Origin: Spirochaetota bacterium
GTDB taxonomy: Bacteria; Spirochaetota; UBA4802; UBA5550
Direction: 5' to 3'
DNA: 23,821 bases
NCBI GenBank assembly: GCA_050298055.1
Contig: JBNKTL010000041.1
Span: forward strand, 1 to 23,821
Below are positions 20,888-23,821 of this stretch, in pieces; the first letter of the stretch is position 1; each line of letters opens with the position of its first letter. A program made the translations under genes and the position numbers. The notes under the pieces are model-generated. The model worked only from the letters and a program-made list of their open reading frames with translations. It did no database searches and had not been told where the DNA came from.

Positions 20888-21987
20888 AGAAAAAGATCTA
20901 TTTCTTGGCCGGCCTTTTTATTCTTATCCTGTCTCTTTTTACAGTCCTCTATTATCACAGGATCAGTACAAGAAATGCCGTTCATCTTCTTGTGCAGGAG
21001 AAGAAGATGATAAATATCCTTATCGCGGGAAGCAACAGGTTTAATAAAAACAGGCACAGGTTTTTCGGGATCTTAAGTATCAATCCCGTAAACAATAATA
21101 TCGGCATGACATTTATCCCTCACTCATACAGGATCCCCGTTGATGAAAAGAAGGGTGTTTATACGAGCATTGGCAAAATCGATTTCAGTGATTTTGAACT
21201 TTTGCAGAATACCTTTAAAAAAGATCTCAAGATGAACATCCCTTTTTATATTGAACTCTATTCTCCCGATGTGGCGAGGTTTATCGATCTTATTGAAGGG
21301 ATCGACCTCTATGTCCTTGACCAGGTAAAGGATATCCCCGGCCTGAAGAGAGGTATCAACTATTTTGACGGGGAGAAAACCGTCAGGTATATAAACAGCG
21401 CTTTCGAAAACTCCCTCTTTATAAAGTATGACAGGATTCAGGACATTCTTCTGACGCTCTCCTATAACAGGGAGAGTAAAAGGATGCTCAACAATACAGG
21501 TTTTATCTCCGAACTTTTTAAGAGCATCAAGACAAACCTCCTGCCCCAGGAAATTCTCAAAATCGGTGAGATTGTCTTCAAAGGAGGGGACCTCTTTACC
21601 ATCCTGCTCCCCGGGACCATTGAACAGGGTCTCTATATTCCCGATGATATCTCATTTAAAATATATGAAGAGAAGTTTGTCACTCCTGTTGTTGTGGGAA
21701 AGAACCTCGACGCGAAGCATAAGATCAAGATCCTCAATGGGACCAATATCTCCGGTCTTGCCCGAAAGATGAGGAACAGGCTCATCAGGGAGGGACTGAA
21801 TGTTGTTGAATTTGGGACCTCTCCCTATGGCAGGATGAAAAAATCGGTTATCATCTTTAAGAGGGGGTGGTTTGCGGGGATCAATAAGATTATCAAACAT
21901 ACGAAAATAACCCGGGTCTATCCCGTGAGTGACAATACACAGCTTCACAATGTGCTGATCATTATCGGCGAGGATCTATCTCTATGA
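20884..21987 (+). CDS. LCP-like protein with LytR C-terminal domain
   Basis: N-terminal TM, degenerate LCP core, C-terminal IKILNGTNISGLARKMRNRL...IIIGED; 4-nt overlaps with neighbours. Confidence 0.82.
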   Translation: MKKKIYFLAGLFILILSLFTVLYYHRISTRNAVHLLVQEKKMINILIAGSNRFNKNRHRFFGILSINPVNNNIGMTFIPHSYRIPVDEKKGVYTSIGKIDFSDFELLQNTFKKDLKMNIPFYIELYSPDVARFIDLIEGIDLYVLDQVKDIPGLKRGINYFDGEKTVRYINSAFENSLFIKYDRIQDILLTLSYNRESKRMLNNTGFISELFKSIKTNLLPQEILKIGEIVFKGGDLFTILLPGTIEQGLYIPDDISFKIYEEKFVTPVVVGKNLDAKHKIKILNGTNISGLARKMRNRLIREGLNVVEFGTSPYGRMKKSVIIFKRGWFAGINKIIKHTKITRVYPVSDNTQLHNVLIIIGEDLSL

Positions 21988-22352
21988 AGAAGAGAGTAAA
22001 GTTAACACCCGGGGAAATCAAAAAGATCGCGGTCACCTGCGCCCGGAAACTTGACGAAAAGAAAGCGGAAGATACACGGCTTCTTGAAGTCATTGAAATA
22101 AATCCCTATTTTGATTTTTTCATCATTACATCCGGCAATTCACAGGTCCACTGCAGGTCCCTTGCCCGGGATATTGAGAAGTTCCTGGGGACAACTCCCC
22201 TCCGGGGCAGAAGCAAACCCGATATTAACTCCGGCTGGATTATCCTCGACTATGACGATCTCGTGGTCCACATATTCACCCACGAGCTCCGGGACTACTA
22301 CCAGCTGGAAAAGTTATGGGCCGACGGGGAGCATATTGAGTTCCAGGAGTGA
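21984..22352 (+). CDS. rsfS: Ribosome silencing factor RsfS
   Basis: EKKAED, DFFIITSGNS, WIILDYDDLVVHIF, RDYYQLEKLW. Confidence 0.95.
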   Translation: MKKRVKLTPGEIKKIAVTCARKLDEKKAEDTRLLEVIEINPYFDFFIITSGNSQVHCRSLARDIEKFLGTTPLRGRSKPDINSGWIILDYDDLVVHIFTHELRDYYQLEKLWADGEHIEFQE

Positions 22353-22832
22353 GGTTTTTTCACTTCAACTTATTTTTTTGAACCGCAAAAGCACAAAGGG
22401 CGCAAAGTTTTTCTTCAATTCATATTCAGAAATAGAGTCTTGTTGTCTCCTAAGGTTGCCGTTGTAAAAGAGTGTAAGAAGGGGGATAAAGGGATGAAGA
22501 GGGGATAGGGGGATGTGTTCACTTTTTTTTCTTTCTTCTTCAAAGTGTTTCCATGATAGGGATTAATTGCTTCTTTTTCAGGTTATTATGAAAAATTATA
22601 TATAATTTATTATCTTGACACTTTGTTTTATAGCCTGTAGTGTAGTAATGGGATTTATATGACGGAGAAAAATTGTTAATTTTTTATTACACAGGTTGAT
22701 TTTTGCCATATTGCTGAGTAATAATGAAGTTTGTTCCTCAAGAGAAATATAAGATATCAAATTGATTTTTTGCGGTGTAAAAAAAAGCTTATGACAGTAT
22801 CAAGTTGACGAGCCTGTCTGAAAGAAAACAAG

Positions 22833-23033
22833 ATGATTAAAAAAGTTGTAAATATTAAAAACTTAGATGATAATAATGATTCCTCAGATGATTTGAAATA
22901 CTGGTTAAGTAAATCCCCCGGTGAAAGAATTGCGGCTGTTGAATATTTAAGGAGACAATTTCATGGAGGTTCAGCAAGACTTCAGAGAGTTGCTCGAGTC
23001 TATGATGTATTGTACCTCATGTGCGTTGAATAG
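22833..23033 (+). CDS. Small partner protein of the nucleotidyltransferase (putative TA component); C-terminus altered by an inversion
   Basis: DLKYWLSKSPGERIAAVEYLR...RLQRV pattern; overlaps the downstream gene start. Confidence 0.7.
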   Translation: MIKKVVNIKNLDDNNDSSDDLKYWLSKSPGERIAAVEYLRRQFHGGSARLQRVARVYDVLYLMCVE

Positions 23034-23416
23034 GGATAGGCGGATACGCGTTGGCGTTTCACGGCGCGCCAAGATATACCGGCGACATCGATTTATTTGT
23101 GAAACCGGATTCACAAAATGCAAAACAGATATTGATAGCTCTTGAGAAATTAGGATTCGGTTCTGCTGGCATTAAACAGGAAGATCTGGAAAATCCCAAC
23201 AAAATCATTCAACTTGGACAACCACCGGTACGCATTGATATCATAACCTCAATCTCCGGACTTACCTGGGATGAAGCAAACAATAAAAAAGTAAAGGGAG
23301 AATATGGTGATATCCCTGTTTATTATATAGGTAAAGAGCAGTATATTTTAAATATAAAAGCTTCCGGCAGGACAAAGGATCTTGCTGACATTGAGGCTCT
23401 TGGTGAAGAACAATAA
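22963..23416 (+). pseudogene. Nucleotidyltransferase (DUF6036-like) gene disrupted by a 33-bp inversion and 4-nt insertion
   Basis: MEVQQDFRELLE in one frame and GGYALAFHGAPRYTGDID...KASGRTKDLADIEAL in another; the missing LFNAHEVQYIIV is encoded on the opposite strand at 23000-23032. Confidence 0.88.
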
Positions 23417-23646
23417 ATAACGTGAAATTCATACCTGTATTACTTTTGATAATTTGTCCGCGTCCTCTAACATAGGGATGTGATGTGGTGTTAGCGCATA
23501 ATCAAAAATAAAGTGCGCCCAGTTTTTCAGATTATAAAGAGATAACATTTTTACCGGCCTGTTTCGGATAAAGGGGAGTTGGACACCATTGTCTTGTACC
23601 ATTTCATTATAAAATATTGAATTATAAAATTACTGATGTAAGTTCT

Positions 23647-23753
23647 ACATAACAAACGCATGCAACTGACAATTTTTTTGGCGTAGTTTTTGAAGACTCA
23701 AAAACTACGCCAACCCTTCGGGACAAAATTGCAGTTGATGCTGGACGTTATGT
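23647..23753 (+). mobile_element. Integron attC recombination site
   Basis: R'' ACATAAC / R' GTTATGT complementary; GCAT[G]CAACTG[A]CAATTTT pairs with AAAATTGCAGTTGATGC leaving two unpaired bases; inner 16-bp stem TTGGCGTAGTTTTTGA/TCAAAAACTACGCCAA. Confidence 0.88.
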
Positions 23754-23771
23754 GCTAGAAAAGGGATAAAA

Positions 23772-23821
23772 ATGGGCTGGACATTACAAGGATATAATGG
23801 TCAAGGATTTAACCCATCGTT
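23772..23821 (+). CDS. Start of a probable gene-cassette ORF (truncated by window edge)
   Basis: AAGGGA SD then ATG 18 nt after the attC R' site; open to the window end. Confidence 0.55.
   Translation, partial: MGWTLQGYNGQGFNPS

Follow-up and report, generated by a model that had tools for sequence, protein, structure and literature searches.

The locus and its genes

The window analysed here is the whole stretch of 23,821 nucleotides, the first part of a 45,946-bp contig from a Spirochaetota genome of 4.7 Mb that is 98.3% complete. Towards its end lies a two-gene module in which a small upstream gene overlaps the start of a nucleotidyltransferase (NT) gene, and the overlap carries a short lesion: a block turned around in place, followed by four additional bases (Table 1). 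Promoter and terminator scans gave results at chance level. Repeat elements flank the module at 22376-22412, 22472-22514, 23423-23553 and 23678-23713, the last of which is a perfect 16-bp hairpin, and copies of them occur elsewhere in the genome as well as in other organisms sampled with it.

Table 1. Features of the NT module and of its lesion (positions in the window)
Feature	Position	Strand	Remarks
Repeat-element stretch matching the insert and right flank at 12 of 13 positions	22502..22514	+	Possible source of the four bases; post hoc and weak
Small upstream gene, putative antitoxin, unnamed family	22833..23033	+	Now 66 aa; 60 aa earlier
8-bp arm that could pair with the block's first 8 bases as oriented before the flip	22938..22945	+	Possible hairpin at the left breakpoint
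MenT1-like (DUF6036/DUF2204/AbiEii-type) NT pseudogene	22963..23416	+	Begins within the 3' end of the small gene
Inverted 33-bp block	23000..23032	-	Ends uncertain by 1-2 nt; profile and nhmmer evidence
Four extra bases at the right junction	23033..23036	+	Net +4, frameshift; copy of neither flank
Residual 121-aa ORF with TTG start	23051..23416	+	N-terminal 28 residues and GG motif missing; gene-caller annotation
Leu at a position that is Phe in 113 of 113 homologs	23150..23152	+	
Ile for the Lys aligning with MenT1 K137 (K130I, family numbering)	23354..23356	+	Second likely inactivating change

The NT family is large (2,764 matches at E 1e-20 or better), and its intact members match DUF6036, DUF2204 and AbiEii. 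The best PDB match of the family profile is MenT1 (E 2.3e-5), the tRNA nucleotidyltransferase toxin of the MenAT1 system of Mycobacterium tuberculosis, which is paired with the 68-residue MenA1 (PDB 8AN4, 8AN5 and 8RR5; PMC10435456, PMC11375011). The catalytic residues of MenT1 named in these papers, T39, D41, K137 and D152, align with T38, D40, K130 and D141 of the family. These four are conserved in 113/113, 109/113, 112/113 and 113/113 homologs, respectively, the 113 being those of 147-150 aa among the 119 best. Because K130 aligns with MenT1 K137, the K130I change of the window copy removes the counterpart of a residue whose loss is described as abolishing the toxicity of MenT1 (PMC10435456, PMC11375011). 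In E. coli MenT1 itself is silent (PMC10435456). Two changes at conserved columns are in themselves unexceptional, 10 of the 113 homologs having two or more. With its frameshift and its lost catalytic lysine the window copy is, judged from its sequence, a dead gene.

For the small protein no named family was convincing in Pfam, NCBIfam, PADLOC or the PDB. MenA1 was not among its six PDB matches (E up to 5), a comparison in which short proteins are easily missed. The small gene is present at 41 of the 43 genome loci, and its 60-aa family shares, as read from window positions 22833-22999 and the alignment, an aromatic-L-S-x-x-P-x-E-R helix and an RLQR tail. This small partner is a candidate new antitoxin family.

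Anatomy of the lesion

The earlier state was rebuilt by reverse-complementing 23000-23032 and deleting 23033-23036. The NT frame then becomes continuous from 22963 to 23416, with 150 codons including the stop (149 residues), and the upstream protein that starts at 22833 ends after 60 aa. The earlier note had described a 33-bp micro-inversion plus a 4-nt insertion, and its coordinates, lengths and two rebuilt frames all hold. The minus strand of the block codes for the end of helix 1 and for the strand running into the GG motif. Every base of the earlier sequence is retained; in the present one the NT frame is broken past codon 12.

That chance is an unlikely source of this double repair, as had been proposed, was borne out by two kinds of comparison. 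On a profile of the homologs the rebuilt 12-mer scores 37.8 bits, close to the mean of the homologs themselves (39.7), while repair without an inversion, by removal of any four bases, reaches -43 bits at best. When 300 shuffled versions of the 40-nt stretch were searched alike, the mean was -34 and the maximum -10 bits, so that none of the 300 attained 37.8. In addition, nhmmer with a DNA profile built from 25 intact modules returned in the window a minus-strand match at exactly 23000-23032 (6.5 bits). Homologs had also been expected to have a segment of the type LFNxHxVxYxIVGG at this position; indeed, the spacing across the inverted segment is identical in 111 of the 119 best protein homologs and different in none, the other eight being unscorable.

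The placement of the junctions is ambiguous by 1-2 nt, three placements tying at 37.8 bits. Of the 4-bp CTAT/ATAG repeat that had been noticed at the borders, only part is old: it is present now, but its last base is supplied by the insert, and in the earlier state inferred from the sequence the repeat was only 3 bp long. The inverted form was found by the nhmmer DNA profile in none of 72 homologous loci (29 from metagenomes and 43 from genomes, duplicates included), nor was it seen among the 29 metagenome loci sharing the 22 bases to the left of the junction.

The claim that the lesion hits both genes is formally true but overstated. The present small protein consists of 56 of the original 60 residues followed by 10 new ones, and residues 1-56 keep all conserved columns and most of the predicted interface. 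Since the small protein keeps these residues while the NT is frameshifted, it is mainly the toxin that the lesion kills.

A predicted toxin-antitoxin pair and the order of its decay

The partnership of the two proteins was modelled on the intact pair of a homologous locus, L001, and not on the window copy. The predicted complex scored 0.88, against 0.00 for the best control, on a scale where the mark is reached by 116 of 157 solved pairs and by 2 of 215 mismatched ones; a model of this kind may owe part of its score to its resemblance to the solved MenA1-MenT1 complex. The runs share at least 99% of contacts, with a pLDDT of at least 73 for the partner. Partner residues 17-44 and 48-59 are placed in contact with NT residues 26-39, the active-site loop. 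On the strength of this model the NT and the 60-aa protein are probably a toxin-antitoxin pair.

The likeness to MenAT1 extends to the best PDB match, to the four catalytic residues, which align at the level of the family, and to the small upstream partner, which is predicted to sit on the loop that bears T38, the equivalent of the phospho-acceptor. There are also differences. The NT has 148 aa against 196 in MenT1, the small protein is without sequence match to MenA1, the two genes overlap by about 50 nt, and the window copy is dead. Our search of the literature, most subscription journals being outside its coverage, found nothing on DUF6036 nucleotidyltransferase pairs.

Homologous loci were scored for intactness by frame length and by eye. 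A broken NT next to an intact small gene was found at 12 of 29 metagenome loci, through 8 distinct deletions or truncations, and at 7 of 43 genome loci. Both genes were broken at two loci, and the reverse combination, a broken small gene with an intact NT, occurred in none of the 72. The asymmetry corresponds to a rough binomial value of 0.016 at a rough target ratio of 0.24. These counts leave out three identical metagenome loci (L067, L070 and L083) whose last codons diverge, probably a ninth lesion, seven loci cut by contig or locus ends (L005, L015, L043, L057, L058, L072 and L085), and L066, which shows only part of the small gene. They agree with the usual, toxin-first order of decay, in which the toxin is inactivated before the antitoxin is lost (PMC13617665). 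Six of the eight metagenome lesions (six of nine with the uncounted one) start no more than 34 nt past the point where the conserved motifs of the small gene end, a range picked post hoc. We read this clustering as dead toxin genes eroding up to DNA that would still be under selection. Taken together, it is likely that the pair is a MenAT1-like toxin with a small binding antitoxin, and that the lesion persists since toxin-first loss is harmless.

Several of these loci deserve mention in their own right. Over the two sets (L057-L085 and L001-L043), roughly one locus in four has lost an intact NT but still has its small gene. The deletions in L042, L063, L068 and L076 retain the last 20-30 codons of the NT, and in L068 and L069 the small gene is fused in frame to the retained tail. 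In L026, 99% identical to L002, the NT has been thrown out of frame by an insertion of 5 nt, so here too a toxin was knocked out recently.

Replication template switching as a possible route

The account that we favour, with about even confidence in the whole of it, is that of a one-off scar in a decaying toxin-antitoxin module, produced by replication template switching. The replication fork would stall at the site, and the nascent strand would switch to the opposite strand and copy 33 nt backwards. Four bases would then be gained from a brief third template or from an error-prone polymerase, and the strand would return in register, as a 1-3-2-4 switch with a dirty return.

Several observations are consistent with this route. 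The block has been replaced in place by its own reverse complement, which is the four-point pattern of type 1-3-2-4. In PMC5453318, armless in-place inversions are a described class of template switch that needs no prior repeat, and they make up 45% of the high-confidence human-chimpanzee events; two breaks about 20 nt apart are judged highly unlikely as a source of micro-inversions in PMC8755829. A possible hairpin, formed with the 8-bp arm of Table 1, ends at the left breakpoint of the earlier state, a weak hint, as 9 of 220 positions do as well. The genome has two Y-family polymerase genes. It also has a hairpin-spacer flip among its repeats, where C3 8768-8838 and C4 139611-139681 differ by an interior that is inverted relative to the flank. 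A hunt for scars in repeat alignments gave 35 candidates, nearly all of them palindromic elements by eye, and none among 32 gap pairs; a second scar of the 33-bp-flip type was not found in 409,510 bases of genome repeats.

Other observations weigh against template switching. As placed, the junctions show no microhomology, and the full conservation of the earlier bases suits cut-and-join at least as well. Repeats of 3-4 nt are argued to be too short for template switching, and micro-inversions are said usually to be born without extra changes, both in PMC8755829. The lesion is also no classical quasi-palindrome spacer inversion: no stem joins the two ends of the block in either state, and the 8-bp arm pairs with one end only.

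The origin of the four bases was pursued separately. A single four-point switch that duplicated ATAG would need an ancestor that is out of register and scores -52 bits, and therefore such a switch cannot yield the four bases. An 8-mer spanning the junction is found again at 22556 and 23472, and at no site within 300 bp; this recurrence is equalled by 6 of the 256 possible inserts within 500 bp and by 1 of 256 within 1 kb. In a scored search for insert templates, 64 of 256 possible inserts do as well within 300 bp, 5 at 600 bp, 8 at 1000 and 17 at 2000. The nearby template sites, including the repeat-element stretch of Table 1, are post hoc, and a templated insert was retained as no more than a weak hint.

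Possible end-joining and a cassette of Ku-fold genes

Break repair is a possible route that we hold tentatively, as somewhat unlikely. Two Ku-fold proteins and an ATP-dependent ligase would have rejoined the block after it was freed and turned, with the addition of four untemplated bases. The lesion itself has the look of such a join: no earlier base is lost, the junctions are without homology and the four bases are not copies of the flanks. Yet the route requires two breaks only 33 bp apart, with the piece retained between them, and the repeats of the genome hold no second scar of the kind.

The earlier note had proposed a search of the genome for Ku and LigD. Ku, sought as PF02735, was not found in this 98.3%-complete genome, while the control was positive in B. 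subtilis. This negative is misleading, however, since a pair of Ku-fold genes invisible to Pfam is present in the genome next to a ligase; the lack of a Pfam match to Ku is no proof that end-joining machinery is missing. The cassette lies at C56:15257-18033 and has three genes (L056:26-637, 653-1351 and 1348-2802), the third coding for the single ATP-dependent ligase of the genome, which is without a polymerase module and whose best NCBIfam match, below the cut-off, is the NHEJ ligase domain. For both unannotated proteins the predicted models (pLDDT 95 and 81) match Ku ahead of all else, with Foldseek E values of 3e-6 and 1.6e-5 and structure alignments of Z 12.5 (rmsd 3.0, 122 residues aligned) and Z 10.2 (rmsd 4.3, 159 residues aligned). 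The two profiles barely align with each other (probability 4.9). Neither gene has a sequence match in Pfam, NCBIfam, PADLOC or the PDB, or a match to plasmids, and for the first one the Atlas is blank. In a sample of 201 genomes from the phylum, the second Ku-fold gene was found in two, of which this is one.

Compared with bacterial NHEJ, in which a Ku homodimer (PF02735) acts with LigD, the cassette is alike in having Ku-fold genes directly before an ATP-dependent ligase. It differs in that the two Ku-fold proteins are different from each other and invisible to Pfam, and in that the ligase lacks the polymerase module. The addition of four bases is a difficulty here, as PF21686, PF01896 and PF14791, for the LigD polymerase, AEP primase and PolX, were not found in the genome, where a divergent one could escape as Ku did. 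In addition, the function of the cassette is deduced from fold only, and with one genome and one event the co-occurrence of cassette and scar is not a cause. A wider version, which is doubtful, is that the flip and its four bases are the in vivo footprint of an undescribed end-joining system made of two divergent Ku-fold proteins and a minimal ligase, that carriers of this system would accumulate armless micro-inversions with added bases, and that the present one would lie at the boundary where the MenAT-like family as a whole repeatedly sheds its toxin and retains its antitoxin. No publication on a cassette of two Ku-fold genes and a ligase, or on divergent Ku, was found in literature that excluded most subscription journals. 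Within the same coverage, the literature found on end-joining and inversion was eukaryotic or concerned with editing only.

Excision by a type IIB restriction enzyme, suggested by the size of the fragments that these enzymes release, was rejected: the genome has two N6-methyltransferase genes, neither identified as type IIB, and the added bases do not repeat an overhang. A 979-aa fused restriction-modification-like gene with an N6-methyltransferase domain lies at L093:667-3606 on C4.

The earlier note had left the choice between end-joining and template switching, and had argued against an invertase. That judgement stands, as set out below; of the two options, the second is held at about even confidence and the first tentatively.

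Improbable origins: two-step, artefactual and programmed

An improbable variant assumes two steps, or a single break repaired by microhomology-mediated break-induced replication: a clean flip at the 3-bp repeat, with the extra bases acquired later in a gene already dead. The NT gene does show other decay, and micro-inversions of 17-33 nt with repeats down to 3 nt are described in PMC8755829. Against this, had the flip occurred at the 3-bp repeat, each junction would need added bases, one on the left and three on the right, and later insertions would have no reason to land exactly on the junctions.

Still less probable is an artefact of library or assembly, in which a chimeric molecule would have been amplified and then assembled. 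The lesion is known from one genome and one sequencing run, perhaps its source, at the level of contigs only. In that public run, X1, a 2,064-bp contig of depth 10.1 spans 21800-23799 with 0 differences and crosses both junctions unbroken, with no joint listed at the lesion. As X1 may be the source sample, its contig speaks more strongly against an error of the assembler than against a chimera formed in the library. The site lies in mid-contig, far from the ends, and the catalytic lysine of the same gene has been changed separately, both of which speak against an artefact. No intact allele was seen in the contigs examined from runs X1-X4, a form of data that drops rare variants; X1 shows the lesion only. 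In run X2, at a depth of about 3.6, one contig ends exactly at 22999 and 23000-23167 is uncovered; either a mixed population or a gap in coverage might explain this, and it is given no evidential weight. The locus is absent from the contigs of X3 and X4, the latter having foreign homologs that continue in the intact manner. Among 40 relatives there was no close relative with the locus, only distant matches.

A programmed phase switch or shufflon that controls the toxin, to which a short in-place inversion within a toxin-like gene might lend itself, has a negligible chance of being correct, as the earlier note had rightly argued of an invertase: the inverted repeat measures only 3-4 bp, the net gain of four bases stays after re-inversion, which fails to restore the frame just as the note had said, the catalytic lysine is already gone, none of the 72 homologous loci has the inverted form, no pair of long inverted recombination sites flanks the block among the longest 25 of 54 inverted repeats, and according to PMC8755829 a recombinase could not loop DNA as short as 33 bp. 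The lesion is thus very probably a real scar, and not a switch.

Comparison with known micro-inversions

Micro-inversions of this size are already known, and the window lesion is an impure example in a bacterium. With the type 1-3-2-4 template-switch inversions of Loytynoja and Goldman (2017; PMC5453318) it shares a short block flipped in place and the want of a long repeat. Those switches were described from ape genomes, and a single event of the type adds no bases foreign to the flanks, whereas the window lesion adds four. The human-chimpanzee microinversions of 17-33 nt are of the same size, and a very short flanking repeat is possible in them (PMC8755829). The same holds for the spacer inversions of bacterial quasi-palindromes as summarised in PMC5453318 and PMC5941160, where such a repeat is possible, as in the window. 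In these sources microinversions and spacer flips are mostly pure and lie between repeat arms, unlike the window lesion with its 3-bp repeat at best and its 4-nt addition. Literature on such scars in bacteria was not found, in a search that left most subscription journals outside.

Taken alone, the lesion has little weight, being one more micro-inversion that killed a gene. Its value lies in the junction, a clean natural one with no base lost, no arms and four bases added, which neither standard model explains in one step. The hidden Ku-like cassette in the same genome makes the relation between end-joining and scar formation a testable question. The lesion also draws attention to MenT1-like toxins as a large family, whose small unnamed partner resembles a new family of antitoxins.

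Five further NT paralogs are found in the genome, at about 101660-102440 of C5, 33056-33700 of C41, about 25080-25650 of C7, 102819 of C3 and 13114 of C59. Those of C41 and C7 have different small upstream ORFs. The paralog of C5 is frameshifted near its start, and there a palindromic element separates the NT from its small gene.
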